Part shown: one piece after another, positions 4,372 to 60,735 of the stretch
How the letters are laid out: every line of letters starts with the position of its first letter
Position numbering within the stretch: the stretch's first letter is position 1
Source of the DNA: Nemertoderma westbladi
Taxonomy: Eukaryota; Animalia; Xenacoelomorpha
NCBI GenBank assembly: GCA_032718475.1
Contig: JAUCBJ010002693.1
Span: 1 to 64,000 of the forward strand
DNA length: 64,000 bases
Direction of reading: 5' to 3'
The notes under the pieces: model-generated
The model's database searches: none
Seen by the model: the letters and a program-made list of their open reading frames with translations, nothing else
What the model was told of the DNA's origin: nothing
Made by a program: the position numbers and the translations under genes

Positions 4372-7300
4372 GTAAGTTGATTAGGTGTATAAAACTGCCA
4401 AACAATTGGAGGCCAATACTTCCTCACCATTTTTAGCACTATTTAGCAAAATAGTTTGATTTCAAAAAGACATTCACGTACCATTTGTCTTTTATTCTCG
4501 AGTCTATTTAATTTCTAGAAGAAATTTAATAAATGAATATAAGGACACCAATTATAATGCCTGTGTGTTTGGAGCTCTTCATCCGATCTGTTCGCGGTAT
4601 TTCAACTTTCCATAACGCGAGTTGAATATTTTTGTATTTTATTAAAATTGATTATTCCGATATTACTACTGGGTGCGGGACCATGGGTTTTGGGCACATT
4701 CTATAAACTGGGGGCGATTTATGGGCGAATTTTGGGGCAACTTACAGGGTACGGGAATAATTTCATAGTTATAAGGGCCAGGGGGGGATGGAAAATGCAA
4801 GCAGTATTCAGGTTAGCCTGAGTACTATTAGGCCCTGGCCAACTTCCTGCTGTCTGTAGGGGTGGATTTGGTAATGCGCCAGGCCTAAAGGACAAGGACT
4901 GCCCTTAGCAGTCCCTGGCCAACAGCAGCCATTACGAGACTGAAAAGAACTCGGACCGCTGACTGCTTGTGTCAGGGATTTGCGACGGGAAACGACGGCC
5001 CCTTAGTAGCCAAGCCGTTCTGGTTCTCGATGATCGAACCCTTCGGGGTTCATGAGGGGTGGAGCGGACACGCGAATGGGTGGCCAACTAACGACTGCCC
5101 CCTGAGCTAAGCCGTACTGGTTCTCGATGACCGATCCCTTCAGGGTTCGCGAGGGGTGGGACGGACATGCGAAAGGGCTGGCCACAGGACGGGTTTGACG
5201 AGGACTGCCCTTAGCGGTCTCTGGTCAACGGCAGCTACTACGAGACTGAAAAGAACTCGGAACGCTGACTGCTTGTACCGGGATCTGCGACGGGAACCAA
5301 CGACAGACCCCTTAGCCAAGCCGTACTGGTTCTCGATGATCGTTCCCTTCGGGGTTCGTGAGGGGTGGAACGGACACGCGATGGGGTCGAAAGACAAAGG
5401 ACTAGACTCGACTAGACTCTACTGGCCTACCGACTGTTCGGAGCAGTTTCTCGGCTGCCGAAGCGACTACGAGCCTGAAAGGGACTCGGAAAGCCTAGGT
5501 GGTTGGGTTTCTGTGATGAACCGACGGACCCCTAGCCAAGCCGTTCTGGTTCTCGATGATCGAACCCTTCGGGGTTCGTGAGGGGTGGAACGGACACGTG
5601 AACGGGTCCACCGACACGACAGACTCCTAGCCAAGCCGTACTGGTTCTCGATGACCAATCCCTTCGGGGGTCGAGAGGGGTGGTACGGATACGCGACAGA
5701 GTCTACCGACTGGACCGACCCTTAGCCAAGCCGTGCTGGTTCTCGATGATCGTTCCCTTCGGGGTTCGTGAGGGGTGGAACGGACACGTGACAGGGTCGA
5801 CCGACACCGACACTACGGTACTAAGACTAGGACCGAGGGAAAATCTGGGGAACATTAGGTAGGCTAAAATCTGAGCGAACAGTGGATAATTAAATAATAT
5901 ACTGTAGGGATTTATATTATCGTGTATAATTATTGTGAATATTTGGTGTATATTGATTTGGGGAAGCCCAAAATTATTCTTAATCAAGGTTCAACAGAGT
6001 TCAGTTACATTAAAGAGTATATCCAACTAATGCAGCTTTTTCTCAACCGCAACCCTGCATCTCAGAAATCATTCCTTCTCCAAAATCAATATCCGGTGAC
6101 TGGCCGGGGCTCAGTGGTCTGTAAAGTCACGTCGCCAGCATCGGCGTTTTTCCCCCCTGGTGTTGGGATAACGGCAACAAAATTAAGAATAATTAATGCG
6201 GTTAATTTTGACAGGGTGTCAAAATTAAGAATAATTACGGTCAACTTCAACTGGTGGAAGTTGAGAATCCTTCAATACTCTTCAAAACTCTCTACGTGCT
6301 TGCCAGCACCCACTACGAGGAAACTCTGGTATTTGAGTTGAGACGAAGTCGTGGTTTAATTAATCAACAAACTCGATCTAACCAACTCATAGTCGGCAGA
6401 TCACATATTTGGAGAGTTGTTAACAGGGAATGGAAGTATCGATCACACCCATTGATATAATCCAAGTTGAGCCAGGAATCTGGCACGTCGAAGTTGAAGT
6501 ACAAGGAACGAACGTCGGACGATTCAGGATTACCGTTCGGGTGGTCCAAGCTGAGTACAATACCTACGAGGAACTGTTTTATGACATCGCGTATCTAGCT
6601 ATCGACGAGGCGTTACAATGACGACAAATAACGTATCCGATACCGACGAGATGGATCACCACACAGACTCGGAAGCCGACGAGGTACCAAACGTCAAGAA
6701 CATGACCCATCGGCTAGGGGCTCTTAAAGGCGGAGTAACCCGAGCGTATCAACGGATGGAGAAACAACTCAAGGGAGTCAAAACCCCCCTCAATGAGGTA
6801 CAAACTCAGCTTCAAAGTATCCGAAATATCCTACAGCGGTACGAAAGAATGATACAGGCGTACCAAGAGCTCGTTCCCCCCACTGATCAGGAAAACTACC
6901 CCAAGTTGGAAGAACACGTTGTACATCTAGATGGGTTCCGCAAACAACACCGGAGGACCCTCAGCCTTGTGAGAGGCTATGAAGAACAGTATTACAAGAG
7001 GGCTGAAAGAACAGACGCGGAATCAGTACGATCCTCCAGCATCAGGACAGCAGTACATCGAAAGAGAACGGGGTCCGCTAGAAATCAGCACTCCAGCGCT
7101 AGGAGCGAGATATCCGGCTCAGCGCGCAGTTCTCAAGGGGCGCCGCCACTCCGAGACCAACTGCGAGAACGGAAGGCATTAGCCCTCAAAGCTCGGATGG
7201 AAGATGAGTATATTCAACTACAAGCCGAGCAAGATGTATTAGCCGCCGAAACACAAAAGCGAGAGGCCGAACAAGCGGCCGAACGGCAGGCCGAACAACG

Positions 7301-10300
7301 CGAACAGGAGGCCGAACAACATAGACGAGAGGCCGAACGGCAGGCCGAACAACGCGAACAGGAGGCTGAACAACATAGACGAGAGGCTGAACGGCATGCC
7401 GAACAACGCAAACAGGAGGCCGAACAACGCGGACGAGAGGCCGAACGAGAGATCGAACAACGTAAATGGGAAGCAGAAATGCGTAAACAACACGCCGAGG
7501 CCCAAGCAATTCTCATCCACAAAAAGAATGCGGATATTGCAAAACTCGCGGAATACGAAGCCGCACTTATAGAACGAGATATTCAACTCTACGAGGACTG
7601 GGAAAGGGATATAGATCAGGAATATGAACCAATCCCGGTACCGGAGTTAGAAAAGTCATTTACACCGACAGCGGCGAACTTTCCGAAACCCGAGATCCCG
7701 CCTACCAAACAGTCTATGCTATCGGCACAAGCACCGGTGTTCCATCCCCCACCGGCTACGCTAAAGAATGATGAACCTTATTTCCCATCCAACACCACGA
7801 CAGCGAGTGTACCCAAGTACGAGCCTGAAAAGGACTCGGAACGGGACGCCACTCCCCGATCGAACAACCCATTTACATCAACACCACAAACTCGTAGCCG
7901 CGTCATTATTAAAACTCCACCTATTATTGATCCATCAAGTATGGGAGTGAGTGCCAATAACTATAACCCTCCGAGTCACTCCAGTTCAGACGACGTCAGC
8001 ATCATCCGGGCGTTGGAGAACCGCCTTGCCATGCCTAAGATGGAGATTCGCACCTTCGAAGGAGATCCCGTCGATTACCTCAGATTCAAGAAACGGTTCT
8101 TTGCGCAGATCGGATCAACGGACATAGCCGACGCACAGAAATTGGTATATTTATCGCAATACTTGGGTGACAAACCACGCAGAATTATTGCATGTTTTGA
8201 AGGAGGTTCTCATGAGGCATACTATGACGCATGGAAAACTCTAGATAAAAGATACGGAAATACTGGAACTATAATTAATAAAACTCTAGAGAGACTGATA
8301 CAGGACGCGGGATCACTAGGGGACCCACAGAACATACAGGAATTCTCCGACTCTATGAAGGATGCCTACTATACTCTGAAACCCTTAAATAAGGAGGACC
8401 AGGTGAACAACATTCTAAACCTCCGACAGATCGCCCGGAAGTTCCCCGGATGGCTACAAAGTAAGTGGGCTTATAAATGTGTAGATCTCCGGCGCAGACA
8501 TCCAGATCGAGATCCTAGCTTCCTTGAAATGTCGGCATTCCTGGACGATATCTCCGAATCCATGAATGACTCGATGTTTTCAAAACATAGTCTCGCAAAG
8601 TTGGACGGAATAGAGAGCAACTCCAGGAGTAAGATAACCCCTCCGAAACCGAGATTCCGCCCCCCACCGGTAAGTACGATGGCCATTACCATGGCCGAGG
8701 ATTCCGACGACGAAGACTACGAGGAACCGACATCCGCCGAGGAATGGGCATGTTATCTCGCGAGTTGGGCACCCGAAAGGGAAGGCATCACAAATTCCCT
8801 GCTCTGTCTCTTCTGTGGGGAGAAACATAAAGTGGAATTCTGCAGAAAGTTTCAGTTCGCCGAACTCGTCCCACGCTTCGAGGCGATAATGAAACACCGA
8901 GGATGCTTCCGGTGTCTTGGAACAGGTCACTATGTTCGGGAGTGCGACCAAAGATCATGCTGTGCTGTCTGTAACGACCAACGCCATCACACGCTCCTCC
9001 ACATCCCCGCGAACTTCGATTTTACTACCCTCCCCTTTCGGATCGAAGCCAGGCGAAGAGGAGAAACAAACCACGTCTTCAAAGGAACCCGGACAACCCA
9101 ACGGAGAGAAACCAACCCGTTTAAAATCTCCACCGATACACCACAAGTAACAAATATTTCGGCCACGATTAATCTTATAAATCGCCGCTACATGGTCTTC
9201 GCAAAGGTAATCCCAGTAAGGATCCAAGGAGTCGGCAAATCTTTGACGACACTCGCGTTCCTCGATAACGGGTCCGACGGAACCATCATCGACCGGGATT
9301 TCCTCGAGCAACTCGGCCTAGAATATGAACCTTGTAAACGGCCCATACAAACCATCACCGATAACAGAGAGGTAGAGTCCGGGGAGGTGCAACTCCAGAT
9401 GGAAGGAGTGATGAAGGGCTACGAAACGGCTAAGTTAACCATCAAGAACGCCTTGGTACACACAGACCTCCGGGTGCGGTTCCGACAATCAGCCGAGTAC
9501 CCCCCCTCATACAATTGGACCGAGACGATGTAGACCTGAGGTGTCCGCAGTTGGACGTAAACCGTATCACCCTACTGATCAGACTTGATACACCGGAACT
9601 ACACATCCCCACCGGAGATATCGCCCGATCTATAAACCAGGATGACGGATTTTATGCTGAACGAACAATAATGGGATGGACACTCTGCGGCATTAAGGAG
9701 GAAACTACGGACACCTATACCTACCTTCCCAAATGTCAGATTAAAGAGAATGTAACCTCTGTGGGTTATTGCTCAGCTTCGGATCTTGACGAGGATTTGT
9801 TTCTGGAAACCGAGAAAACCCAACGAGAGATGACGAAATATTTTAATTTGGAGACCCAGGAGTTCGCGGAAAAGGACGAAAACCCATCCGAAGAGGACCA
9901 ATATTGTATGGACGTTCTCGACCAGGCCACGTTTAAAGACGGACACTGGTGTTCACCTATGTTATGGAAGGACCCAAACAAACCAATGGCAAACAACGCC
10001 AGCATGGCACTTAGGCGACTTAAAGGGATTCTACGCCGGCTGAATGACCAACCCGAGATAAAGGAGAAGTATAATACCGTAATCCAAGGATATCTCGATG
10101 ATGGATTAGCAGAAATGGTACCACGGAACGAACTGCAAGGTGGTAAAAGAACATATTATCTCCCAACCCACTATGTAGTAGAAGCCCGCAAAGGTGGGAA
10201 AATCCGAGTGGTAAATGATGCTGCCGCTATGTACCAGGGCGAATCCCTAAACAGTCAACTTTACACGGGACCCAACATATATAGCACACTCATCGGCGTA

Positions 10301-13300
10301 TTGATCAGGTTCAGGGAAAACCGGGTAGCATTCACCTGTGACATCAAGGCCATGTTTCATCAAGTTCGTACGTTACCAAGAGACTCGGACTGTCTACGTA
10401 TCCTATGGACAGATAAAACGCTTACTCAACAGGAGATTAGCCAACTCACGATAAAGGACGTAGACGTAATGCGTATGGTCGTCAGGATCTTCGGCGCTAA
10501 GGACTCGCCGGTAGCATGCAGTGACATGCTAAAGAGGACGGCAACTATGTGCGAAAACGAGTTCCCTCCAACCGTCATAGAAACCATTCAACGATGCTTC
10601 TACGTGGACGACGGATGCGACGGCGCGGATAATGTAGATGAGGCGTATCGGCTAGCAATGGGGATGGTAGAATGTCTAAAGAAAGGAGGGTTTCCGCTCG
10701 TGAAGTTCAGATCCCATGACAAAATACTTATGGAAAAGTTTCCGCAGGACATCCGGCTGGAAAATAACAAAATGTATTCGGAGGATGTGGAACACCGTGT
10801 ACTCGGAATTGAATGGGACATAGAATCAGACGAATTCATCTTCAAATATAAACCCTTACCCAAGCCTATGACAAAAAGGGGATGTTTGTCGATAAAAAGC
10901 GCCATCTTCGACCCACTAAATTTCATATCTCCAGTAACCTTGGCCGGAATGAACCTGATTAAGGAAATGTGGATAGAAGGACTGGGATGGGACGAAGAGC
11001 TCCCCCCACACCTCAGCGTCAAATGGAGAAAATGGACGGAGCAGCTCGAACACCTACATCTTATGCGGATACCTAGACCGTTCTTCCTCGATAAATTGCC
11101 CACAGATATCTTCCAGCTCCACACCTTTTCGGATGCTTCAAATACCGGAATCGGCGTAGTCACCTTCTTACGGAGACTAAGTAACGATGGAAACGGCGAT
11201 ACAAGCTTCTTATTCTCCAAAGCAAAGACAGTATCCGGGGAATTCGTAGCAACGATTCCGAGACTCGAGCTACAAGCTGCGGTTTGGGCAGTAAGACAGA
11301 ATCGCATGGTCATGCGAAATCTACGGATCCCCATAGAATCTCAACACTTCTGGGTCGATTCGAGTATAGTTCTCTATTATCTCCACTCTCCATCACGGCG
11401 CCACACCACGTTTGTTGCAAACCGAGCCACGGAGATTAAACAGTGTACCGGCCGAGAACAGTGGCATCACGTGAACAGGAAGGAAAACCCAGCGGACTTA
11501 TCAAGCCGAGGCGCCACCCCAAAACAACTCGGCAAAAGTAAACTCTGGCTTACAGGCCCGGAATTCCTACGGCAGCCACAATTAACATGGAGTACACGAT
11601 TCGACCCCGAGCTCGATAGCGGAAAATACTCCGAGGACGATAAAGAGATCCGTAAAATCCATCGAAGCAACGCGGTGGAAATTTATAGTTGTCTGACTGA
11701 GCCTGCAAAGGACTCGGGCAGGCACTATAACGTCGCGACGATCACTCAACTAGCGGCGTCTTTACATCGGTTGATCGAGCGAACTTCATCCATGAGACGG
11801 CTCGTCCACCACGTTATAACCCTTCGCAACTTCCTACGGTGGAAAAACAACAAACCGATAGTTCAACGGAATATACAAGAACTCATTATCGCGGAGAAGT
11901 GTATTGTTAGATATGTCCAGAAAGAAAGTTTCCCCGATGAATGGGAACAACTTAGTGCGGGCAAAACATTGAAACCGGACAGCCCAGTCTACCAACTGAG
12001 ACCAATGATGGGAGAGGACGGACTGATCCGACTGAATACCCGGATGGCAAACGCCCCGGTCGAATATGAGGTTAAATACCCGGCGCTTCTGCCCGGAACG
12101 TCGACACTAGCTAAGCTATTAATTCTACAATGTCACGAGGACAACCACCACGCAGGACAGAATTGGATTATAGCTAATATAAGACAAAGATATTGGATCA
12201 CCCACATCCAGCCACTGATCCGGAAAGTGTTGAAACGTTGCTTCACCTGCAGACGTTACCTAGCGCCACCAATCACCCAAAAGATGGCCGACTTACCAGC
12301 CACCCGTCTACAAGCGGATTCCCCACCATTCTACGTCACCGGAGTGGACTGTTTCGGACCGTTCACAGTTATTGAACGACGATCCAACATCAAATGCTGG
12401 GGAGCCATCTTCACCTGCCTGAGGTCTAGGGCAATTTACCTAGATATCGTGGTAAATCTGACACAACACGCATTCATCAACGCTCTGCGTCGGTTCGTGG
12501 CGAACAACGGGACATGCCGCCACATGTATTCCGATAATGGTACAAACTTCGTGGGAGGAGAAAGAGAACTTAGAGAAGCGATCGAGGGATGGTTTACCGA
12601 TAACACCGCATCCCAAGTCTGGAAGGAACACCAGATACAGTGGCACTTCCAGACCCCCTTAGCACCCCATACGAGCGGGGTATGGGAGAAACTGATCGAC
12701 CTAGTAAAACGATCCATGCGCGTCGCTCTAGGTGATACCCGGGTAACCCATGACACCCTCCGCACAACATTCTGCGAGATCACGGCTACCCTGAACAACC
12801 GACCCATTGTCCCTATCCGCGACGACCCCACAGACCTGGAGCCCCTCACTCCTAACCACCTACTGGGGAGACCCAAAACCCACGTTCTCCCGGAAACCAT
12901 GTTCCCGGATCCCAACGAGATCGCGAAACATACAAACTGGAAAAAGGCCCAAGCGTTGGCAGCGCATTGGTGGAGAATTTGGGCCCAGGAGTACCTCATA
13001 ACCCTCCGGACCAGGAGGAAATGGAACAACACCTACCGGAACGTCGCAGTTGGCGACATGGTACTAGTTAAAGAAGATCTCAAAGACCGCGTTCACTGGC
13101 CTGTGGCGCGGGTCGTGACCATACACCCAAGCAAAGACGGACTTGCGAGGACTGTGACGATACGAACGTCAAAGGGCCACTACCAACGCCCTATCCAGAA
13201 GCTGTGCCTTCTTGAAGGCAATGATAGCGGTGACTCTACGAGAGGTGATAAGATCCCTACTCAAGATCCTGCTGTGGACATTGGTGACAATTACAAACCC

Positions 13301-16300
13301 GTGTAACCCTTCTCATCATGTTGACAAACTCTTATAAAACTGTGATTTATCGACAACGAGTTATGGACCCCCTTTAAACCAACTGTAACCACGCAATGGT
13401 ATTTGTGTTTCCTCGTGTGTTATGTGGAGTCCAGCATCACCCTGCAGATGTTTCGACTGACGCAGGGTCGTTTATGCATTGTTTACCCTGATTTTGGTCA
13501 TCAGGACCTACGATATTGGATTATTGGAAATGGAAAAGATTTGAAGTGGAATTCATTGTATTCATCGCAGTATGTTATGTTGTCCGTTGCGTGCGCAGTT
13601 CGGGGCGTAGGCGGTGTAACAAGTCCAGCTGTAGGCGCAACACCCCCTCTATCCCGTTATTCTGGTGGGTCCATGGTGCATCCACATGACTTCGACGATA
13701 GAGGGTTTTATGTTTCTCAGTCGCGTTATTCTGGTGGGACCGTTACGTGGATTTTGGGGCGTAGGCGGTGTAACGAGTCCAGCTGTAGATCCCAGAATGT
13801 TGCGTAGCCCCATCCCACATGACTTCGTCGACTGAGCTTTATGTTGTTGGGAGTGTTATTCTGGTGGGTCCCTGGTGCATCCACGTGACTTCACTCCCAG
13901 CGTCGTCATTGTCCGTTACGTGCGCAGTTTGGGGCGTAGGCGGTGTAACGAGTCCAGCTGTAGATCCCAGATTGCCGCGTAACACCCCTTCCACGACAAA
14001 GATTAACCAAAGAAAATGATTGAATATAGTTGGAAATGATGAAAAGGATCAGACAACTCTGCTATAAACCTGAATGATGACGCGTATGCTGATGAAAATG
14101 AAATGATGCGCACCCTGGTGCTGCGCTTATAACCAATGATGATAGCCGGGGGGCTATAAACCCAATGATGATGTGGAAATAAATAAATGTGAAATAAATG
14201 GTGGAAATAAATGTTGAAATATATGTGGAAATAAATGAAATGAGATAAAATAATAATGAAATGAAAAAAGACAAAAAAAGGTATAAAAAAGTCTAAAGAA
14301 AAGAATTGGAAAAAAGAAAGGACAAAAAGGTCATAAAAAACTGGTTGGATATTAATGTATAGCTATAGTAACTGTAAATGCTGAATGTATTAGCAATAAG
14401 ATGATAGATGTCTATATAGCAATATTATTTAATAAACTGAATTAAATAAAAAACTGAATTATTCTGCTATCGCTATAGTTTCAGACTTTCTGGACTTATA
14501 ATTAACTGATCTAATTTGTAACGGATATAATCGTAAATATGGACCCAAATCGCCAAATTATCGGCGAATTACGTAACACGATAGATCTACTGGAATATTC
14601 GCAACCTGGATCCCCTGACTTTGATACAAATTGGAGCACCCTGCTAAATGAGAACATGCGAGTCATTAAATTCACCGGGCGAGAGGGACCGGATTCTAAG
14701 AATCTACGAGCCCTCCGGTTAGCCGATGCTAGTACGAGACTGAAAAGAACTCGGAACGCAAAGGCAACCGGAGGGGACGATTCGTCGTTTTGGGAAACGT
14801 TCCGGCAGAGCGTCTACAGATCCCGATGTTTGATCTACGACAACGAGGGAAACGCGACGCCCACCTCGAAAGCGATTACGTTGGCGAGATGTCAAAGTTT
14901 CGTCGACGACAAGAGTACGTACCTCGCCCACTGGGGAAACCTGTCGGAGTGTACGGCGACGCTTCGAGAGGAACGCGTATCGATTATCCAGAACCGAGAC
15001 GACTACCAGGAAAAGTACGGGGCGAAAGAATACGGTCGATCCTTAGTCGTCGTCCTCGGAACCCTGGACGGTTTGGTACTTGTGTGCCGAATATTCCCGA
15101 CACCCAGACAGGAAGTGCAGGCAGCCGGAGCGATCTGGTTGCTGCCTCCAGAAATCCAAAAGATCCTCTTCGACTTCGACGTCATTAAAATCGGGTCGGA
15201 TATCAAGGCGGACGTCCGGAACGACTACGCGAACGCCCCTGCAGGAAGAAACCGACGAGACGACCTCAACGCCCTTAGCCATTGCATCGACACTCAAACG
15301 CTACTAGCCTGGTTACGATTCGCCGAGTTCATGTGAGGATTCCAAGAGGTGAGACCGACGAAATCCGGGATCGGCTACCTCGCTGTGCTAAACGGCGGTA
15401 TCGACTTCAAACCCCAGAAATTCCGGGACTATAATAAAATATACGGTGGATACCCGGGATTAGAAATAAAGAGCGAGCGAGAGGGTCGATGGAAGGACGT
15501 TGATCGGAAGTGGACGATACACCAAAGGTGGGAGAATCCCGATCGACGGAACTACGTTTACGTCGTTATGGAGTGCTACACCGTCGCTAAGTTTATCTGT
15601 AAAACTCTCGATAACCTTATTACGGCGGTCCCCCTTTCCTTCGTCGACTACGACTGGAACGAGGTCATACACCACGCGTTCAAAGCGGTCGAGAACATCG
15701 CACCGGGAGAGACTAAAACGCTCGCCGTTATCGATTCCTGGGACGAGAGCGGGCCTTACGACATCCCTACGATTACCAAACTTCTCGGTGCGGAGGAGCC
15801 TCTGATCTCTTCGGAAGGGGAAGAGATATGGCTAAACGAGGGTGTTCTACTCTCCACCCCGAAGCGACAACTCGAGCCGGAGGCCGCGTATGGACCGGCC
15901 GCCAAACGGGTTGCCTCGGCCGAACCGATGAAGAGAGCAGGCGTTTACACCCCACGCGGCTCCGGTAGCCCCGCGAGGGAGGTAGCCACTACAGCTGCAT
16001 TGAGCGACTTCGGCAACATATGCCAACGGTTATCCCCGTATCCTTTCCCGGGTGGCGAAGATTGGTCGTCGGAGATTCCGAGTACCAGCCACCAACGGAC
16101 CCGCTCAGCGATACTGGTCGAGGAGGGCCCCAGCGATGCGCCGACCCCCGACGATCTCCTCGGTATCCCTCCGTCTAAAACCCCGGCACCTCTTCGCCGA
16201 CCAGCGGTGGCTACTACACCCGCCGTTCCTCAGGACCCTATGCGACTAACCCGTTGGTACGCCGAGCAAACTGAATGGATCCACCGCCAGAAACGGTCGT

Positions 16301-19300
16301 CTGAGTTGAGACCAGCGGGACACAAAGAAGGTTATCGGAGCGAGAACCTACTACGCAAAAGCCTAGCATTCCGCGGGCTACCGACCACCGCGAATATTCC
16401 GAAGAGCGACCGACGACTCGAGTATCACGTCGGCGTCCCGATTCCGATATTTCCTGGTCGAGAGATGCAGTTGGAGGTATGCGGCGACTGTGGTTCGGAG
16501 CAGTGCCCACGCGGTAGAAGGAATCGGGTTACCGATTCTTGCCTCCAGCTCCTCGGGATACTCTATTGCCCATACTGCGCGACATCGGGCCACGACGTTT
16601 CCGTCTGTCCGATCCTTTATAACCTCTGCACCACGTGCGGTTTCCGTGGACATTCCTCTAGCCCCCGCTGCTATATCAAATGTCCAACCAAAGACGTTAC
16701 CGCTATGGGAAATATGGTCATGTTTGAAACATACGCAAACAGCCACTTAAAGACCAAGGTTCGGAGAAACGCTCGGAATATCGCGCAGGAGATGGCGTGC
16801 GGGTATTTCTCTTTCCCGGAACGCCTCCACACGTCGGCCACGCTACCTTTCCATTACGTGGATCTGCTACTGAGCGCCGGATTATTCGGTCCATTTGAAG
16901 TCATTAGACGGTTATACTCGTATAAAGAGGAGTTCGGTGACGGAGAGTGGTTCCTAGAGGCAGGCAAGTCTGAGTTGGAGAGACGAACCGACATGATCCC
17001 TATGCCATCGAAAGGAAGAGCCGCCAGGAGACAAGCCGAAGCGTTACTCACGATGGACGTTGACGCTCCTCTACCAGCCATAGCGATCGATGAGAGTCGA
17101 CGGGCGAAGAGACGAAAGGCGTATCAGAGAAAGAAATAGTGGATCGGGATATTCCAGGAACATTTATCAAACATTTATTTTTATACAAACTCTAGGCCAA
17201 ATTAATTAAAAACTATGCAATATTAAATTTGGGTTTTTTATATTGGGAATGACCTACGCAAACTCAATCGACCGACAGACTTCACGAAGGTCATTGGGGG
17301 GGACTGTTCGCGGTATTTCAACTTTCCATAACGCGAGTTGAATATTTTTGTATTTATTCAAAATTGATTATTCCGATATTACTACTGGGTGCGGGACCAT
17401 GGGTTTTGGGCACATTCTATAAACTGGGGGCGATTTATGGGCGAATTTTGGGGCAACTTACAGGGTACGGGAATAATTTCATAGTTATAAGGGCCAGGGG
17501 GGGATGGAAAATGCAAGCAGTATTCAGGTTAGCCTGAGTACTATTAGGCCCTGGCCAACTTCCTGCTGCCTGTAGGGGTGGATTTGGTAATGCGCCAGGC
17601 CTAAAGGACAAGGACTGCCCTTAGCGGTCCCTGGCCAACAGCAGCCATTACGAGACTGAAAAGAACTCGGACCGCTGACTGCTTGTGTCAGGGATTTGCG
17701 ACGGGAAACGACGGCCCCTTAGTAGCCAAGCCGTTCTGGTTCTCGATGATCAAACCCTTCGGGGTTCGTGAGGGGTGGAGCGGACACGCGAACGGGTGGC
17801 CAACTAACGACTGCCCCCTGAGCTAAGCCGTACTGGTTCTCGATGACCGATCCCTTCGGGGTTCGCGAGGGGTGGGACGGACATGCGAAAGGGCTGGCCA
17901 CAGGACGGGTTTGACGAGGACTGCCCTTAGCGGTCTCAGGTCAACGGCAGCTACTACGAGACTGAAAAGAACTCGGAACGCTGACTGCTTGTACCGGGAT
18001 CTGCGACGGGAACCGACGACAGACCCCTTAGCCAAGCCGTACTGGTTCTCGATGATCGTTCCCTTCGGGGTTCGTGAGGGGTGGAACGGACACGCGATGG
18101 GGTCGAAAGACAAAGGACTAGACTCGACTAGACTCTACTGGCCTACCGACTGTTCGGAGCAGTTTCTCGGCTGCCGAAGCGACTACGAGCCTGAAAGGGA
18201 CTCGGAAAGCCTAGGTGGTTGGGTTTCTGTGATGAACCGACGGACCCCTAGCCAAGCCGTTCTGGTTCTCGATGATCGAACCCTTCGGGGTTCGTGAGGG
18301 GTGGAACGGACACGTGAACGGGTCCACCGACACGACAGACTCCTAGCCAAGCCGTACTGGTTCTCGATGACCGATCCCTTCGGGGTTCGAGAGGGGTGGT
18401 ACGGATACGCGACAGAGTCTACCGACTGGACCGACCCTTAGCCAAGCCGTGCTGGTTCTCGATGATCGTTCCCTTCGGGGTTCGTGAGGGGTGGAACGGA
18501 CACGCGACAGGGTCGACCGACACCGACACTACGGCACTAAGACTAGGACCGAGGGAAAATCTGGGGAACATTAGGTAGGCTAAACTGAGCGAACAGTGGG
18601 TAATTAAATAATATACTGTAGGGATTTATATTATCGTGTATAATTATTGTGAATATTTGGTGTATATTGATTTGGGGAAGCCCAAAATTATTCTTAATCA
18701 AGGTTCAACAGAGTTCAGTTACATTAAAGAGTATATCCAACTAATGCAGCTTTTTCTCAACCGCAACCCTGCATCTCAGAAATCATTCCTTCTCCAAAAT
18801 CAATATCCGGTGACTGGCCGGGGCTCAGTGGTCTGTAAAGTCACGTCTCCAGCATCGGCGTTTTTCCCCCCTGGTGTTGGGATAACGGCAACACGATCCA
18901 TATAGACATCCGTATAGAACTAATTAGCTGGTATCGACCCCAGTGGATAAAAGGGTGAGTGCACCCTGGAGAGATACAGCATTACATTTTTTTTTATTCC
19001 TTATTATAAACTTTGTTGTTTTTCTTCCTCTAGGTGGTAACGCCTTACAAAGCCAAAAATTTACTCTCGAGTGGTCCTGGATTTACATGGATACAAAGGA
19101 AGTTATAGTTAATGAATCCAATGCTTATATCGATGTGAAGTTAATAAGGAATGGCTATCTGGGAGAGCAATCTGTTATAGGTGAGTGAAAGATGCTAAAC
19201 GTGGAAATATATTAAATATATAAATTGTTGGTCTATATTTTGAATTATTAATTTGCTTGAAACAAAACAACTTTATGAAGCTTTATTTCAAAAAATGTGC

Positions 19301-50292: not shown

Positions 50293-51541
50293 TGTACGCG
50301 CTTTTGAAGACCTTTAGCAGTTTAACCTGCCAAAATTTATATGTCTTTTGGTTTATAAATAGACTTTAGAAGTTGACAAATATTTAATACCAATAAACAC
50401 AACATTAGCAGAAGCCAGCCTAGTGCGCGTCCATTCACCCGCTGGATATACCCGGGAGACTGGATTCTGAGGGCTTAGATTATTATTGCAGTGTAAGCTT
50501 ACTGTATTATTCGATTGATCGTTAATAAATAATTTCTGACCAATATTATTCACTTTCGGGAAATATTAACAGTTCCTTTAGGACGTGGCGCTCTATCTAG
50601 GTAAACAGAGATATGACTTATACTAATCACAACGGTAAGTCGGTAAGGCTTATGATTCACGTATGAGGCGCATTCTTTAGGAAATGCTTAGTTATCAGCC
50701 ACAATCATGCACACTACCGGTAACACACAATACTGCTCACTAATTTGCCGACCGTCAATGTATTTTATCATATATAAAGAGAACAGCAACGGACTCATGT
50801 AGTGCTTATCAAATAGCATTAAATTCACTACAAACCACAATAATATAAGTCGCAATCGCTATATATAACCCGTCTCTCTAACCTGTAGTGTATCAAGAAA
50901 ATTGGGAAATTTGGGTTCTTTATATATGTTCTCCAAATAATATTCAACCAAAACACAACAGTAAACATTAAGACGGTATGTTAAGTTATGATATGAACTG
51001 ATTTGGACCGATATGTGATATGAGTTGTTAAGATAACAGTTATACGCTCTATAATTTAAGCCTACTAATATTTCTTCTAAAGTATGAAAACGAATTGACT
51101 CTAGAGCCGGTGTTCCTGGCCTAGATAGCAACAACACAACGGTATCACAAAAACAGTAAGACTGAACACTCCTAGTATGATCGGCCGAATATCTACACGT
51201 CGACAGAAAAAATCGCTCTGATTGGCTCAAGCCAAACAAAGAACCATGCGTCCAATGGCTGTTTCCATGCCAGCAACCAGCTGCTAGATGTCGCAATCTG
51301 AATCATCAAGGCCAAGCCGTGTAAAGGTATTTGGTGCATTGCGGGTTTTTTGCCTTACCATGTCCGCCAAAGCACGTATATAGAAGAATGACTTTTATGT
51401 CCGTTAAAACACCTGTAACGGTACCTTGCGGGCGAGGGGAATATATATACAGTTAGAGAGCCTTTTAGAGTATTCCAGCGCCTGGGGGGAAACTGGATTG
51501 CAAAGCAAAGGGGCCAGTTATATCCCACAGAAGCTTTTACA
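50293..51541 (-). repeat. 3' LTR of element 2
   Basis: Minus strand TGTAAAAG...CGCGTACA preceded by purine-rich TGGGAGCGG; the 51541 boundary is inferred because the partner LTR is truncated. Confidence 0.7.
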
Positions 51542-51812
51542 CCGCTCCCAGAAAATGGGATTTGAGTCTATAAAATATACAAAATCACAGTTTCTAATAT
51601 ACGTAAATACTCTAAACAGTTAGTCTTTCTTGCGCGGACGGCGTTTACGCAGTTTTTTAAAGCTAGCCAGAGTCCTTTTCTCTTTGGGGCGAGCCACTTT
51701 ACAAGGAGGGCTATAACTCCTGGGTGAAGGGTGCAATATGATTGCATCAGAGGGTGTAGGATTATGGTCGGTGTATCCGCCAGTCGAAGTACCGGGTTGA
51801 TTGACATCAATG

Positions 51813-53050
51813 TCAGGGGAGAGGAGCTCGTTTCAAGACAGCCGCTCTTACGGGTCCTTTACGAGTGGTCTGAATGAGGGCCGTGGGTGGACCATAGGCA
51901 GTTAGAAACCTCCGGGGTTTAATGGTTCTTTCCAACTCGCGTTCGCGGGCTCGGTATTCGTAAGGCCGTCGATATACTTCCTGTAACTCGGGGTGTGAGT
52001 TAACAAACAAGTCTCCATAGTCCGGATCCTGACGGATATAATTGATTAAGTTATAGGAATGAAGGTCGCTAGGATTAACACTCCTGAGAAATTTGCGTAC
52101 GAATTTGGTTGAAATACATTCTCCGACTCGCTTCAGTAGCTCGTAACTCGATATGCGTGATTTCTGTTCAACCGAAGCGAATAGATAAGGATGGAACGCA
52201 TAAACTCCTTCGTAAGCGCGTCCGGGATAATAGCGATGGCGCGAATCACAATGTAAATCAGCGTTCGCTTCCCAAGCTCTGATGTAACGTAGTGTGATCA
52301 TTTCATCTACGCTTTCCAAATCGTGATTAAAAGGGCAATCGAAACTGGCGTGTCCCTTTAGTTGACAATGGTGACATTGAGTCATAAATTGAGGGCAAAC
52401 CGCAAAAATGTGCAAGTTATTGAGTCCGCAATACGCACAATAAATTTCCATAGTCGGTTGTTCTTGGAAATAGGAACAGCGGACGTTTGTGTCCACTGCG
52501 TATCATGGTCTCTCGATGCGCATAACCGACAACGTTGTCTAGAAACATAGTTGGCATGTCGATAATCGTACGCAGTGAGACACTGTGGACCTTGATACCA
52601 TTCTATGATGTAGTCGTTGTCGCTGTTCCGGGCGCGATAGGCTGAATCTCCTCAGATTCTAGGCATATTGGTTCGTCTTCCCAGTCTGTTACGAATAGAA
52701 TTTTCGTGATCTATTCTCGGTTTACCGTTACAACTCCGCTGGGTATGATATTTAAATAGAACCATTTCCCTTTCGGTGTCTACATCGTCCGTATCATGTA
52801 AATCGATAGGATGGCCGGTAGTTAGGAAGTCCATATACGTACTATTACGATGCGTATAGCGAGCGGTGAATTTTCGATAGTCCAATTCACGCGTAAGTTG
52901 CTCTTGGGACATCGGCGGTTCGATATAACGACCATCGTCCTCCGTAATGGTTGGATCGGTTTCACCGCGTATCAAGCTATCCACAAATGCTTGTAAAGGT
53001 AGAGTATATCGCTCCCTGATACCAAGATCATCTTCTATCAGCTCCGTCAT
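51813..53050 (-). pseudogene. Degenerate ORF3 homologue (zinc-finger region)
   Basis: CRLCASRDH...YCAYCGLNNLHIFAVCP...CHHCQLKGHASFDC...WEANADLH aligns with element-1 ORF3; in-frame TGA at 52652-52654 and a frameshift near 52496. Confidence 0.75.
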
Positions 53051-54681
53051 ATCTGCTATCTGAGTTTATTAATATCGAAATGAGTTTATGTTTAGGCGAG
53101 CGGACGTCGCTGCCTACCTCTCTTTGCCCCCGGACAGTGGGATTCTCAGCGCCGATGTACCGTCGTCGCGGTGTTTACGCCAACATGTAGCAACAGCACG
53201 ACAACGATAACCGGCACAAGTCACTCCACTGTCCGTCCCAAAGGCTTGAATCCACTTTAGGTTCTTTCTATAGGAGAGTTGGGCTACTTTCACAATTGCG
53301 ACTAGCTACTGTAAACACACCTTAGCAGTAACATTCACCTACAAACGCACAAATTCCACACAACTGTCACCAATTGTACACATACAGGCCATTTGTCCGT
53401 TAGTCAGTGCCTTCCAGAATGTCACGTTATTACTGTGTATCCTTGGATACTAACAGTGTGCTATGTATTCTCTATGCTATGCAATGTGACAAGCTTTCTA
53501 TTGTTCTTTTAACTTGCTTCTAATTCTAGCGTGGGTGTTGCTATGGTGACATTATGGAATGCTAGCGGTAGAATTAGGGTAATTCTCATGCATACAGATC
53601 TGGGATGCTATTTAATAATAATTCTTTAATTGTCAATATCCTCTTTATGCATGATTTTATTAATTTTATCGGCTATTGACTATATGTTGGAGATTCTCGC
53701 ACTCCAATACACTCAATAGGATGAATCTCCGCTCCCATGATCTATTAATTAATGGAATTTTGGGGATGTTATAAATTGCATAAAACGACAATTTATGAAA
53801 TTCATTTAAAATATGAATTTAAATTTATTCCCATGAATTTTATTATTTGATGTTAAAATTGACACAATTTGATTCCAGAGCAGGTCTGGGGACATAGGAT
53901 CCTTAATTCTATGAAATTTGTCTTTTAAGAATATCGGTAAGTGCTACGATATCTTAATCGACTAGAATTGTTAACGGATCTGAATTTTACAGATTTTACT
54001 AAATATTAAATTAATATTTAAGATGGGCACCGATTTATTCCAGAGCTTGTCTGGGGACGTTAACCACTGATTCTAGAATTTGTCTTTCAAGTATATCGGT
54101 GGGTGCCGCGATATCTTAATCGACTAGAATTACAGATGGTCAAAAGGTTTAACAGATTTATTTGCATTTTACGCTACTGTTAGAGGGACATCACGCTACT
54201 ATATGTATTATTTAATATAAGGTAGAAGAGCAATATCGCACGAAGCAATGTCAGTGTGAAGAGGCAAGTCGTTTCCAAGGTCTACCCAGAGCTTGGTTTA
54301 GCTGAGACACGAGGATCTGAACTTTGCATTCCTAATACTCTGCCTACCAATAATACTTAAATATAGTAGGGGCTTTATTGTACTTTAATAAGTACGGACA
54401 TTTCATCTTACTGTAGTCACGTATTTATAATATGATACGGACAGTAAGGAAAGAGAAAAATAATTATTTTCTCGCCGTCGCACTAAATATATATTATAAG
54501 TAATTACGTACGTAATAAACACTAATATATTGCACTAATCTACTAAATAATCACCAAAATAACATTCTACTAAATAAAATTAAAGAAAACGATTATAATA
54601 AAATTACATAATAATACATACATAAATATAAAATAAAAACAAACATAAAATGATATAGTCACACGCCCACTCCATATGTTA

Positions 54682-55002
54682 TTACGTTATGGAGTCCCTA
54701 GATATTTGTCGGATTAGGGAAGTGGTCGTAGGAAGAGTATCTTGCCTTCCATAGTTTCCGGACAGTTTTCGGTCTCTTTCCAGTAAACATAAACGACCAG
54801 CTGGGCGATTGAGTTGTTGTGTTACTTTCTCCGCTCCCTTGGCCTGTCTAATCTCCGCCGGGGTAAGATGAGGAGGCCATTCTTCTTCTTCTTTACTTAA
54901 GAAGTCGGATCCACCTAACCAGCCTGGAGTATCTATCAGTTCTTGAGGAGTTGCTCCTCTGGAAGCGATGTCGGCTGGATTAATCGTCCCAAGGCAATGT
55001 CT
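54682..55002 (-). pseudogene. pol: Fused pol remnants (RNase H end joined to integrase C-terminus)
   Basis: In frame with gag after the TAG: RHCLGTINPADIASRGATPQELIDTPGWLGGSDFL...WP...LNRPAGRLCLLE. Confidence 0.85.
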
Positions 55003-58000
55003 CTATTGATCTACATTGGAGTTAATATCGTCATTATCTGAGGAGTATGGTGTTCCCTCAGTTGGATCGTCCACATCACTGCTCTCCACTTCCCATTCCT
55101 TTACTTGGTATACCTGTTGTTGAGGTAATCTCTCTTTGAGAGTTCTACGGGAAGGGCCAGTGAAGTACCAACCTACTCTAGTTCTTACCGCATAGGTTTG
55201 TAGTGGCTGCGGTTGAGCAGGCCGTTTCTCCAATGTCTCGAGCGTCTCATGCGCGTTTTGGCCGATGAGTATTTGCACTCCAGGATAATCTGTCTGGAGC
55301 CGAGGTATCTTAAGATGTTGGATGCTCTCATCCTCGTCCCAATTATAAAGGTCTGCTTGGGTAGCAGCTAAGTTCTTTATAGCCACCATTTTTACCGACC
55401 TTATACCTTGTGCTCCTAATTTATCCTGGGGGGTGGACAACACACCTACATAGTAGTCTGCCGTTAGGGTAGATTTCCAAACCTGCATAATTCCTGACAT
55501 ATTCAATTTAGTCCGGAATTTGGGTTGTCCAGCAAAAATATCTTCGGCTAGTTCTTGATCGATGAATGTTCCTGTGCTGCCGAAGTCAAGGAGGGCATTC
55601 ACTATGTAACTTTTGTTAGGACCATGAACTCTTACCTGCACTACAGGAAATTCTCTGATTCCTACGTTGGAAGTTGGAGCTTTCCAAGATGGTTGTCTGG
55701 CAAAAGTAGTTGGGGGGAACTCATTGTCGGTGTCCTTTTCATAAGTGAGTGCTCGATACACTGAGGTATTTATTAGGTAACAGGATTCGTTGGCGTCGGA
55801 GAATTCGTCAGTATAGAATCCTTCCATCTCAGACTCTTGATCAGTGTCATTTACATCACTGAATTGGACATGTAGTTCGGGCTCACTTACCTGACTCGGG
55901 GTGTCTCGTTCGAACTCACTGTGTAACAAGATGTGATGTTTCGCGCCACACTTTGCACACTTTACGTCGGAGTAACAGGTTCGCCGTTGGTGTCCTGATC
56001 TGAGGCAATTATAGCATAACCGCTTATTCCACAGGACTGTACGTCTGTCTACAAGGGATTTCTTTAGAAATTCAGCACACGCACTCAAACGGTGGGGCCC
56101 GTCGCACAGCGCACATTTTGGTTTGATGTTACTCACTTTACCTTGGGTAACGTTATGCACTCTCGTTCTTTCTTCGGGCTTTCTTCCGTGAATTCTCTTA
56201 GGAGACATAGGAGGAGTTGTTGTTACCTGTTCTCTCCTGTCACTGGTTCGAGACTTATATTTACTTACGTCTTTATAGGTCTTGTTGTCATAGTAAGATT
56301 TTGCTGTGTCTTTCCCGCTGTCCTCTTCTTGAGAAGCTTGGCTTTCGCCGTCGTCAGTATAACACACTGGTATTATCCTTCTCCTAGAAACGGGTTTCTC
56401 ACTTACCTTATTTTCCGATGTTTTCTCTCTGGACTGCTTTATGAGTTGTAATTTTACTTCACTATCTAAGAAGGACATGAGATCAGCCATAGTAGGGCTT
56501 CGTCGTTGTTGTTCATTCATATACAACACTTTCTTGTCCCAGCGTGTACATACTCCACCCTTTGGTAAAGTAGAGACTACTGCTCCAATAACCATGGAAC
56601 TCTGATATTCATGAGACTTACCTAACCAGTCCAATTGTCTACAGATCTCCTGAATCTCATCGGAAAACTCTATAATCCCGCTACTAAGGAAGTTTCGGGG
56701 GGCTACTAATTTTGCATACAAATACTTAGCTATGTTATCCTTGTTACCATACCTGATGTTTAATGTATCCCAAACTTGTCTTAATCCTTCTGGATGTCCA
56801 ATAAACTTTAACGCCATTAACTTGGGAGGTCCTTCCAAGCACTTGATGAGGAACCTAAGTTTCTCTCCGTTAGATAGTACAGAGTTCTGTATGCTGTCTT
56901 TGTAATATTCATTGAAAGGTAACCATTTCATCTCATCTCCATTGAATTTGACGATCTCTCCCACTTTGACCGCTTGGCGGGCTTCTGTTCTAGCCATCTG
57001 ACGCGTAAAGCTTTCTTGGGCCATCGTGTTATTTAATATCGAATTATCGGCATATAAATTTCTCGGATCATTATCAGGTCTATAGGGAATATCATTAACA
57101 ACAGGTTTATAATCACCCTTAATAGGGTTTGCTATAGGAGTTTCTACTTCACTAGCAGTATAGATGCGTGTAGGCTCCACACCTTGCGCATGTAATACTT
57201 CAGACCTAACAGGTTGACACAATGTTACAGGGGGTATTGATATACCATTTTGTATATTGACTAATTTGTCGCGTTCTAGCGCGATACTTTGCTGCACTTC
57301 TTGCAATTCGGCCCTACCTTCCCTTACTGTTCCCTTAAGTTGGTGGACAGTCTCCTGCATCTGTCCGAGCAGGAGATTCATCCCCCGCCGTCCCTCCTCT
57401 ACCCACTCGACCGCCGAAGCGGGAGTCGCCAACATTGTAGCGGGCTGACGCGGGACGACGGGAGACAAATCTTTGATTTCTCTCTCAGCTTCCAGGACAG
57501 GGATATTCTCATGGACTGTTCTACCGGGTACAGGCAGTGTAGTACTGTGTAGAGGGAATTTAGAGTTAAGCTCTGGAAGTACAGGGGTCTCTAGCACAGG
57601 AGTGACTTTGTGAACGACAGGCCTAATTATTTCAGGCTCATCAACTATTGTAGGGAGTCTTTTGACCTGAATAATTTGTTCTGTAGGTTCTGTACCACCT
57701 AAGTCTGTGCTAGCTAGTTGTCTTCTAACCGCTGGGGGCAAATCAGGCAATTTGTAACGGTGAGATGTTTTTCTACGCCTGCTTAGACGAGATCTATTTC
57801 CTCCGCCTTCAGGATCGGTGGTCTCGCCTTCCTCCGATGATGTGTATCCTTGGCGCTTGGGAGTAGATCGACTCCTCATCTGCATTTGACTAGCAGTTAA
57901 CTGTTTATTTATGCAGTCTTGCGTCTCTTGAAGATTTTCCAACTCCAGTTGTGTGATCTCCTCAGACGCTCTCCGTTCTGCTTCTGCCACCGCTGCATTT

Positions 58001-58830
58001 CTTTTTGCTTCTGCCTCTGCCGCCGTTGCTTTTCTTTTTGCTTCTGCTTCTGCCGCCGCTGCCTTTCTTTTTGCTTCTGCTTCTGCCGCCGCTGCCTTTC
58101 TTTCTGCTTCTGCTTCTGCCGCCGTTACTGCTGCTGCCTTTCGGTCCTCTATCTGTTTTTTCTTTATTTGTTCTTCTTGGACTCTAACGAGGCGGAGTCG
58201 TTCATCAAATTTAGCTTGGTTCGCAGCTAACATTTCCGCATCGATTGCGTCCAACACAAGCTTGGTTCCTTCACTATTAGGGCGAAGTCCAGACAGTCGT
58301 CTCCTCAACTCTTCGTCTCCTAGGAATCGCTGATAGTCTGACAGATAGATGTCAATGGCGTCTCTAGTTCGCGGCTTCTCTGCTGCTGTTAATTCGCTTT
58401 CCACTTCGCTTTCCACTTGAGAAGAAGTGGCGTCGGTTGATTCTTCATAGGTTGGCTGTTCATCATAAACCGTATCCACCATCTTCGCTCCGCGTTCGGG
58501 CGTCCGCTCAGCAGTATCCGAACTACTGGAGCTATCGGGCCGCTGGGAACTAGGTTCTAGGATAGGATGTTGCTGCTGTTTGACAGCTGCTTCTTGATCC
58601 CGCTTGACTTGGGCCCGAGTACCGATGATAGACCTACGTTGTTCTAATAGCCTAGGGTCTGACACTACTACTGTAGGGATGGCCTTTTTGACAATAGTAG
58701 GTGACTTAGACTTGGATCTAGGATGTTCTATACTTGGATCTGGGTCACTGATCTTTTTAAGACACTGTCTAACAGTCATTCTAACACTTTCTAAGAGACT
58801 ATCCGACAGTGATTGGGTTGTGTCAGACAT
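55003..58830 (-). CDS. gag: BEL/Pao Gag-protease polyprotein (1275 aa)
   Basis: KFNGDEMKWLPF...GEKLRFLIKCL; CALCDGPHRLSAC, CYNCLRSGHQRRTC, CAKCGAKHHILLH; ALLDFGSTGT...ILIGQN...TRVGW. Confidence 0.93.
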   Translation of the reverse strand: MSDTTQSLSDSLLESVRMTVRQCLKKISDPDPSIEHPRSKSKSPTIVKKAIPTVVVSDPRLLEQRRSIIGTRAQVKRDQEAAVKQQQHPILEPSSQRPDSSSSSDTAERTPERGAKMVDTVYDEQPTYEESTDATSSQVESEVESELTAAEKPRTRDAIDIYLSDYQRFLGDEELRRRLSGLRPNSEGTKLVLDAIDAEMLAANQAKFDERLRLVRVQEEQIKKKQIEDRKAAAVTAAEAEAERKAAAAEAEAKRKAAAAEAEAKRKATAAEAEAKRNAAVAEAERRASEEITQLELENLQETQDCINKQLTASQMQMRSRSTPKRQGYTSSEEGETTDPEGGGNRSRLSRRRKTSHRYKLPDLPPAVRRQLASTDLGGTEPTEQIIQVKRLPTIVDEPEIIRPVVHKVTPVLETPVLPELNSKFPLHSTTLPVPGRTVHENIPVLEAEREIKDLSPVVPRQPATMLATPASAVEWVEEGRRGMNLLLGQMQETVHQLKGTVREGRAELQEVQQSIALERDKLVNIQNGISIPPVTLCQPVRSEVLHAQGVEPTRIYTASEVETPIANPIKGDYKPVVNDIPYRPDNDPRNLYADNSILNNTMAQESFTRQMARTEARQAVKVGEIVKFNGDEMKWLPFNEYYKDSIQNSVLSNGEKLRFLIKCLEGPPKLMALKFIGHPEGLRQVWDTLNIRYGNKDNIAKYLYAKLVAPRNFLSSGIIEFSDEIQEICRQLDWLGKSHEYQSSMVIGAVVSTLPKGGVCTRWDKKVLYMNEQQRRSPTMADLMSFLDSEVKLQLIKQSREKTSENKVSEKPVSRRRIIPVCYTDDGESQASQEEDSGKDTAKSYYDNKTYKDVSKYKSRTSDRREQVTTTPPMSPKRIHGRKPEERTRVHNVTQGKVSNIKPKCALCDGPHRLSACAEFLKKSLVDRRTVLWNKRLCYNCLRSGHQRRTCYSDVKCAKCGAKHHILLHSEFERDTPSQVSEPELHVQFSDVNDTDQESEMEGFYTDEFSDANESCYLINTSVYRALTYEKDTDNEFPPTTFARQPSWKAPTSNVGIREFPVVQVRVHGPNKSYIVNALLDFGSTGTFIDQELAEDIFAGQPKFRTKLNMSGIMQVWKSTLTADYYVGVLSTPQDKLGAQGIRSVKMVAIKNLAATQADLYNWDEDESIQHLKIPRLQTDYPGVQILIGQNAHETLETLEKRPAQPQPLQTYAVRTRVGWYFTGPSRRTLKERLPQQQVYQVKEWEVESSDVDDPTEGTPYSSDNDDINSNVDQ

Positions 58831-60199: not shown

Positions 60200-60735
60200 A
60201 AAATACAACCCAAACGCTGGCAGACTACCACCAAGCCTAAATAAACTACAGTATGTGCAGATTCCAAAATGGTTAGTTAGTATGCGTTCTAACACGGTAG
60301 TACGACTTAATCTTTAAGAGGGGATTGACCTTACATCTATGGCTGCCCCAACTTACTAACTGGCACTCTATCGGACAAACTCTACACACGCAGCAATCTC
60401 TTCAGACCTAATAATAGCTAGACAACAATCCAGCCTACAAAATATCTGAGTAATAACTATTACGGTACCTGAACAGACCACACAAACAAACACAGACCAA
60501 AACGCTGGCAGAATACTGTCAAGCCTAAATAAACTACAGTATGTGCAGATTCCAAAATGGTTAGTTAGTATGCGTTCTAACACGGTAGTACGACTTATTC
60601 TTTAAGAGGGGATTGACCTTACAGCTATGGCTGCCCCAACTTACTAACTGGCACTCTATCGGACAAACTCTACACACGCCGTAATCTCTCCAAACCCAAC
60701 AACAATCTGACAACAGTCCAGCCTACAATTATCTG
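60200..60735. repeat. ~288-bp tandem duplication in the element-2 leader
   Basis: AAACGCTGGCAGA...CTCTACACACGC at ~60212 and ~60500. Confidence 0.85.

Follow-up and report, generated by a model that had tools for sequence, protein, structure and literature searches.

Cis-acting RNA elements have been described mainly in vertebrate retroviruses, murine retroelements, and yeast Ty elements. RcRE of HERV-K, RxRE of HTLV-1, RmRE of MMTV, MTE of MusD, and PTE of MLV are structured RNAs situated in the 3' LTR/U3 or in coding regions (PMC2577329; PMC4588558). RcRE lies in U3-R, RxRE in the 3' LTR, and RmRE at env-U3 (PMC2577329), and the MLV export element sits in pro-pol (PMC4588558). Another relevant system is the bdelloid rotifer LTR elements Juno and Vesta, which have an extra ORF behind pol that encodes a DEDDy fold; the role of this ORF3 was left open in that report (PMC5408684). 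At the level of RNA motifs, the sarcin/ricin motif is a 4x5 internal loop, the prototype of which consists of U2-C12, A3-A11, G4, U5-A10, and A6-G9 (PMC8450098). Here we describe a short RNA module with a predicted sarcin-ricin-like (loop E) internal loop that is repeated in the LTRs, gag, and accessory gene of a retrotransposon. The window, that is, the whole stretch of DNA analysed, is 64,000 nucleotides long.

The host BEL/Pao element

The element at 4589-18893 is a full-length, young BEL/Pao LTR retrotransposon. This assignment was made because its ORFs carry DUF1759, an aspartyl protease, Peptidase_A17, and DUF5641. DUF1759 in gag, Peptidase_A17, DUF5641, TG..CA LTRs, and a 5-bp target duplication (4584-4588 and 18894-18898, one on each flank of the element) were all found. 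The LTR pair (1591 and 1589 bp) differs at 19 positions. The CCHC zinc knuckle of gag was detected with an E value of 0.0085, below the curated cut-off. The features of the element, and a second element in the window, are as follows.

4589..6179, plus strand: 5' LTR, TG...CA, 1591 bp, from the alignment to the 3' LTR
5972..5984, plus strand: candidate self-primer of 13 bases, complementary to the primer-binding position
6182..6194, plus strand: primer-binding position, 2 bases past the 5' LTR end and complementary to 5972-5984
6618..9533, plus strand: gag-protease ORF with DUF1759, zinc knuckle, and aspartyl protease
9515..13306, plus strand: pol ORF with Peptidase_A17, integrase zinc finger, and DUF5641
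14539..17139, plus strand: accessory gene, ORF3 and ORF4 in one frame, with a likely DEDDy-type exonuclease fold and zinc knuckles
17305..18893, plus strand: 3' LTR, 1589 bp, 3' of a G-rich polypurine tract at 17296-17303
50293..61735, minus strand: second BEL/Pao element with near-identical LTRs of 635 bp, a long gag ORF, and only a remnant of pol

Among the best 120 of 939 matches, Pol showed 34-43% identity to BEL/Pao proteins of corals, fish, molluscs, and echinoderms, and no near kin of this Pol lineage is recorded among them. Since the named nearest proteins come from these animals, the host of the element is probably an animal. When viral contigs were searched with Pol, no relative was found. 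The summed contig depth was tens of thousands over the element compared with ca. 25-32 in its left flank (two DNA runs), indicating a many-copy family, although the depth figure itself is not a copy number.

In the rest of the window, satellite-like tandem arrays were observed at 1-800 (unit of 22 bases), 41900-44300 (unit of 21-22/43), and 45966-46962 (unit of 41). A 132-bp inverted repeat (95%) is located at 47196-47486; it overlaps a weak tRNA-like Rfam hit (47276-47346), and ARAGORN detected no tRNA in it. Regions 48040-50313 (minus strand) and 19388-19954 resemble, by eye, the endonuclease and reverse transcriptase of non-LTR retrotransposons, and the former adjoins the second LTR element.

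Copies and predicted fold of module B

The original prediction described a loop-E plus GNRA hairpin (module B) that occurs three times in the 5' LTR, interleaved with K-turn-like hairpins (type A) in the order B-A-A-B-A-B-A-A-A, and once more in ORF3. The coordinates, order, and core pattern are all present in the sequence, as are the rewritten outer stems of the third copy, the basal loop common to B and type A, and the ORF3 string. Every predicted copy was found, and the list was extended by a copy in gag (7815-7842) and the repeats in the 3' LTR, both of which it had lacked.

4902..4989, plus strand: module B1; sarcin-ricin loop 4930-4934/4954-4957; inner helix and UGAAA cap 4935-4953
5208..5294, plus strand: module B2; sarcin-ricin loop 5236-5240/5260-5263; lower pair U-C, bulge C
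5436..5521, plus strand: module B3; sarcin-ricin loop 5465-5469/5489-5492; lower pair G-A, bulge C; unrelated outer stems
4997..5085, 5097..5182, 5306..5388, 5526..5609, 5621..5704, and 5716..5799, plus strand: six type A hairpins (K-turn-like), interleaved with B
7798..7862, plus strand: lone B in gag, codon 400; sarcin-ricin loop 7815-7819/7839-7842; lower pair A-C, bulge G
14707..14778, plus strand: lone B in ORF3, codon 64; prototype sarcin-ricin loop 14730-14734/14754-14757; own outer stem of 10 pairs
17618..18237, plus strand: B1', B2', and B3' of the 3' LTR, with cores at 17649, 17955, and 18184

The core of module B comprises 32 bases, 23 of which are invariant across five settings (B1, B2, B3, gag, and ORF3). 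A window-wide scan with the core pattern gave eight exact matches (0 mismatches), all on the plus strand, and none of 100 shuffled sequences contained any match. Each LTR has three copies, gag and ORF3 have one each, and pol has none. The B core is the only sequence common to the LTR and the interior of the element. Because the gag and ORF3 copies are read in different reading frames, protein constraint cannot account for the identity of the core. B2 and the ORF3 copy are identical at 31 of the 32 bases, a near-identity that recent transfer would also give. The covariance-model search suggested with the original prediction was run on the window with a model of the five settings; of its 14 matches, the eight known copies scored 58-66 bits and the other six 15 bits or less, so that just the known copies were recovered.

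No match to the B pattern was found in viral contigs or prokaryote genomes, collections that contain little animal DNA, and the type A pattern had none in the viral contigs. Two metagenome matches to the B pattern were rejected as chance, since both fell in a bacterial gene that looks by eye like parB and had no outer stems. Rfam gave no hit at E<=10 over 4400-6700 and three weak hits over 6100-19000, none of them on any module. Contigs aligned on B2 (n=162; only positions far from contig ends) contributed two substitution rows and two length rows, which are no gauge of conservation, and the contig-variation rows, 40 of 1048 being listed, were uninformative on the B cores.

In the predicted fold of B, the outer stem leads inward to a 5x4 internal loop, which is followed by four pairs that never vary and then by a bulged A; a C-G pair carrying the cap UGAAA(A/G) completes the hairpin. 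Beside the bulged A there is A-A or, in the inner helix of B3, C-G, with both sides changing together. Outer stems of B1/B2, of B3, of gag, and of ORF3 bear no relation to one another, yet all of them pair. In all eight copies, the pair probability was 0.81-0.99 for the pair closing the loop and 0.99 for the inner pair. When the core was fixed and the flanks were shuffled, sequences as stable as the natural one numbered 0 (B1), 6 (B2), 1 (B3), 0 (gag), and 0 (ORF3) in 1000 each. Among 1000 synonymous recodings each, none reached the natural stability for ORF3 and 52 did so for gag, the latter being borderline. The folding z-scores were -3.8 for B1 and -5.8 for the ORF3 copy. All nine LTR modules (A and B) fold better on the plus strand, each holding two to eight G-U pairs; the ORF3 copy folds nearly evenly on both strands, and for the gag copy the minus strand gives the better fold. 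A descriptor of the loop matched the window at 16 sites on both strands, namely the eight B copies, seven sites that had no folding support, and one AT-rich site (0.55/0.67).

Watson-Crick covariation within the core did not exceed that of shuffles (256/500), since there is no variation in the inner helix. Its four inner pairs, and likewise the cap, stay constant even though the outer stems are replaced, as expected if the sequence and not the shape alone is read. In addition, an 8-base arm of the ORF3 stem was unchanged in two diverged contig lines, in which 6 and 9 of 15 upstream bases differ; these lines are loose ends counted by eye and are mutually related, and thus count as one observation. 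Taken together, module B is very probably, as judged from the predicted folds, a sense-strand RNA structure under selection. On its 3' strand, the outer stem of B1/B2 (4910-4980) is interrupted by a one-base bulge every three to four pairs; such regular bulges would avoid long perfect double-stranded RNA.

The 5x4 loop is closed by helices on both sides in all eight copies. Loop positions A3, U5, A6, G9, and A10 are invariant, and position 11 is A or C. The upper sheared A-G, the U-A reverse Hoogsteen, and the A-A/A-C tHH pairs could all be assigned from the sequence. The lower tSH pair is C-C in B1, U-C in B2, G-A in B3, A-C in gag, and U-C in ORF3, all of which are in the isosteric set. C-C, U-C, G-A, and A-C are the four most stable lower-pair combinations measured in PMC8450098. 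G-A of B3 is a double change from U-C, and the first change alone (U2G) is the disrupting control of that study (PMC8450098). The sarcin-ricin loop of B1 combines the C-C lower pair with a bulged U and A-C; its A3-C11 is a common bacterial variant, and both A-C at the tHH pair and a bulged C or U are found in the natural motifs described there (PMC8450098). The bulged base is G in two of the eight copies (both coding copies), C in four (B2, B3, and their repeats), and U in two (B1 and its repeat). The bulged base of viroid loop E is also C, as in B2. According to PMC8450098, U or C at this position, as in B1, B2, and B3, is natural but rarer and less stable than G. The ORF3 copy thus has the prototype of the sarcin/ricin motif, and the other copies correspond to listed single or double variants (PMC8450098). 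Variation in the internal loop is confined to positions where sarcin-ricin motifs tolerate change, and the AGUA/GAA and cap positions do not mutate freely among the five settings. The predicted loop-E module in RNA was therefore borne out at the sequence level, where its identity is well supported.

The cap reads C-UGAAA-R-G in all copies. RNAfold closes it as a GAAA tetraloop on a U-A pair in four settings or a U-G pair in one; the U never changes, so there is no covariation under GAAA. T-loops have extruded base(s). As an alternative to GNRA, the cap could be a T-loop, with UGAAA as the pentaloop and one extruded purine on the C-G pair. UGAAA is the T-loop sequence in two loops of the FMN riboswitch, where the gap takes an intercalating base (PMC3764141).

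The original prediction also noted that the ORF3 copy reads like the rRNA sarcin-ricin sequence with a 13-base insertion. Compared with the rat 29-mer (PMC4227780), 21 of 23 central bases of the ORF3 copy match if one C-C pair and the 13-base insert are left out of the count, and the match takes in three stem pairs below the loop that had not been counted. Seven of the bases are forced by the motif. The remaining agreement would arise by chance in ca. 1 in 40,000 to 1 in 260,000 per comparison (hand estimate), or ca. 1 in 200 to 1 in 1,500 when four settings, ca. 15 known motif instances, and gap freedom are allowed for; these estimates are post hoc and refer to the rat loop, which may differ from the 28S loop of the host itself. 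The likeness of the string is thus longer than stated, but it has no structural counterpart at the tip. A single pair lies between GAGA and the bulged G of the rat loop (PMC4227780), whereas in the predicted fold of B, GAG is base-paired to the 13-base insert and the cap is thereby displaced to a distance of six to seven pairs; one C-C pair is missing, and the LTR copies have no bulged G. Because the match reaches into the flanking stem, descent of B from 28S rRNA is possible, albeit doubtful on balance. If it did so descend, a ribosomal motif would have been recycled as a retroelement signal. A fuller scenario, in which a 28S loop of the host was captured, disarmed by the 13-base fold-back insert, and domesticated as an address tag read by the accessory nuclease-fold protein, as one of at least four three-dimensional RNA cassettes that the element shuffles among its arrays and genes, appears quite unlikely.

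Arrangement of module B in the predicted transcripts

Type A and B modules share a (Y)UA/GA(N) basal loop, as seen in B1. Four of the 28 pairs of type A are changed on both sides, all of them in the basal stem. No A module is present near the gag and ORF3 copies of B. Single-stranded linkers between the modules (4887-5838) are rich in GAC, with 24 in 199 bases (0/500 shuffles as high), and also in CGAC; this is possibly a second, single-stranded binding motif. m6A-type DRACH in the linkers was not enriched over shuffles (451/500). Immediately 5' of the array, two hairpins are predicted at 4803-4888, the first of which is a 10-pair stem after a TATA-like box at 4770; they could form the 5' end of a separate array-derived RNA.

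The primer-binding position and its complement within the LTR suggest that this BEL/Pao element is a candidate for self-priming, a mode known from Tf1/Sushi and also predicted in certain plant lineages (PMC6317226). Self-complementarity of 13 bases was reached in one of 5000 locally shuffled LTRs. A repeat (6220-6237) and a hairpin (6202-6228) were observed near this position. The RNA would then start near 5972, and the array would belong to U3 and thus be present only at the RNA 3' end. Close to 5972 are TCAGTT (6001), which resembles an initiator, and ATTAAA (6009); a start there leaves four upstream ATGs instead of 16-18. TATA-like boxes are located at 4702 and 4770 and may serve a second transcription start 5' of the array.

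The frame of the accessory gene is split into ORF3 and ORF4 by a stop (15334-15336), which is absent from the aligned contigs among the rows listed. Read-through of this stop as selenocysteine via the K-turn modules was considered and dropped on account of this absence. Residues 110-265 of ORF3 gave Atlas clusters with DNA_pol_A_exo1 (PF01612) at a score of 0.94 (183/256 features); the best cluster has this family on 17% of its members, mostly Rotifera, and serves as a lead only. The C-terminal part of the accessory protein gave zinc-knuckle Atlas clusters with scores below 0.9. Searches of Pfam, PDB, and homologs gave no hit for the accessory protein, and two single-sequence structure models of it had pLDDT of 31-35. 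The Atlas lead points to a probable DEDDy-type exonuclease fold in the accessory protein. Inactive DEDD domains can retain RNA binding (PMC5408684).

The spacer before ORF3 (14063-14484) contains seven of the ten AATAAA of the element, two TATAAA, and a TTTCAG 55 bases 5' of the ATG. These signals hint that gag-pol and the accessory gene are transcribed separately, in which case both transcripts would include a copy of B. The spacer may represent an internal poly(A) site together with a separate or trans-spliced accessory mRNA; it is A-rich, and chance could also yield such signals. A second structured RNA array was observed before ORF3 at 13580-13990. It contains two further module types in three copies each, with differing outer stems, and in the middle copy one type is nested inside the other. 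The z-scores were -2.1 to -3.2 for four of its five pieces and -0.2 for the first, and Rfam gave no match for this array.

Possible roles of module B and comparison with known systems

Module B behaves like a protein-binding tag, because its loop, helix, and cap are preserved to the base, any outer stem is accepted, copies stand alone in two genes, and the module is multiplied in the LTR. Although we place it somewhat short of an even chance, our tentative reading is that B serves as a stand-alone, sequence-specific protein-binding tag for export or stabilisation of the element transcripts. The outer stems would merely present the loop, and the invariant loop, helix, and cap would be the surface read by a protein. 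The array in U3 would provide copies at the RNA 3' end in addition to one copy per coding unit, and the multiple copies would confer higher avidity. The candidate reader is the accessory nuclease-fold/zinc-knuckle protein of the element or a host factor. A fixed pairing of protein and module is disfavoured, since the second BEL/Pao element has a related zinc-knuckle accessory ORF (51813-52502; E 1e-6) and no B module. The original prediction of a protein-binding or tertiary-docking module holds insofar as a binding or docking site is most likely, and obligate docking on type A is weakened by the lone gag and ORF3 copies.

The structural evidence for the tag applies equally to a dispersed packaging or assembly signal, in which the Gag zinc knuckle would bind copies on the genomic RNA and nucleate the particle. 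Dispersed packaging signals occur in RNA viruses, copies of B occur all the way from gag to the 3' end, and gag has a CCHC knuckle, albeit at an E value of 0.0085, below the curated cut-off. However, pol has no copy, and the putative separate accessory-gene RNA would carry four of the five copies and compete; packaging is thus unlikely. The alternation of A and B with a common basal loop and the invariant cap would also fit RNA-RNA docking, in which the cap, as a GAAA tetraloop or a UGAAA T-loop, would contact either another B or the type A basal loop. Docking of this kind could make the array more compact or could bring the RNA ends, or two genomes, together. UGAAA being a T-loop sequence with an intercalation gap in the FMN riboswitch (PMC3764141) would suit such a contact. 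However, two copies are alone in ORFs, and docking alone leaves the invariant inner helix unexplained. The A-A platform found in the 11-nt receptor is also missing from the basal loop, and we consider docking distinctly improbable.

The remaining explanations are less probable still. A mimic of the sarcin-ricin loop, binding elongation factors or ribotoxin-like nucleases and so tuning translation or acting as a decoy, could draw on the 21 of 23 central rat-loop bases in the ORF3 copy and on viroids, which recruit host factors with such loops (PMC6633198). Because GAGA is paired in the predicted fold and six of the eight copies have no bulged G, working of B as a sarcin-ricin loop was not supported, and mimicry is very unlikely. 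Arrays in U3 are often enhancers, the inner stem of B is an inverted repeat, and B2 and the ORF3 copy are near-identical, all of which would suit repeats acting as DNA, either as a palindromic transcription-factor site in a U3 enhancer or as neutral copies made by template switching. Neither predicts the strand-specific, G-U-rich folding, the independent outer stems, the covariation of non-canonical pairs, or the ORF3 stem arm kept in diverged contigs, so that action as DNA is largely refuted and even less probable than mimicry. The hairpin ribozyme contains a loop E, and B, alone or with A, might be a self-cleaving ribozyme of an undescribed class; yet no Rfam family matched, no hammerhead or hairpin core could be read (by eye, against the consensus), and self-cleavage inside gag and ORF3 would cut the mRNA. 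This explanation is extremely improbable.

An open-access literature search found no such RNA module or cis-acting element for BEL/Pao. The component motifs are textbook ones, and there is precedent for the likely function; for BEL/Pao, the cassette-and-array design appears undescribed. Module B is small, repeated, and self-annotating, in that its five natural settings reveal which bases matter, including a non-canonical compensatory change. It also provides a candidate for what the DEDDy-type accessory proteins of retrotransposons bind. Juno and Vesta likewise have an extra ORF behind pol, the DEDDy fold of which is putative in the present element, and the latter is BEL/Pao; in the main text of PMC5408684, the terms "stem-loop", "hairpin", and "secondary structure" do not occur. 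Viroid loop E is likewise a sarcin-ricin variant in a parasitic RNA and recruits host factors (PMC6633198), but it is a single copy in a circular plant pathogen, whereas B is repeated in a retrotransposon. For the tag reading, a parallel is offered by the Rev/Rex/Rec-type response elements, with which the position of B would fit; a relation in sequence to the known retroviral elements is not to be expected. Like RcRE, RxRE, RmRE, MTE, and PTE, B is a predicted structured RNA in the LTR and in coding regions, and as with the retroviral response elements, an accessory gene is present in the element, although its protein is predicted to be nuclease-like and not Rev-like. In the accounts cited here (PMC2577329; PMC4588558), the known export elements are not shown as arrays of this kind, whereas B is a short cassette repeated in many settings.
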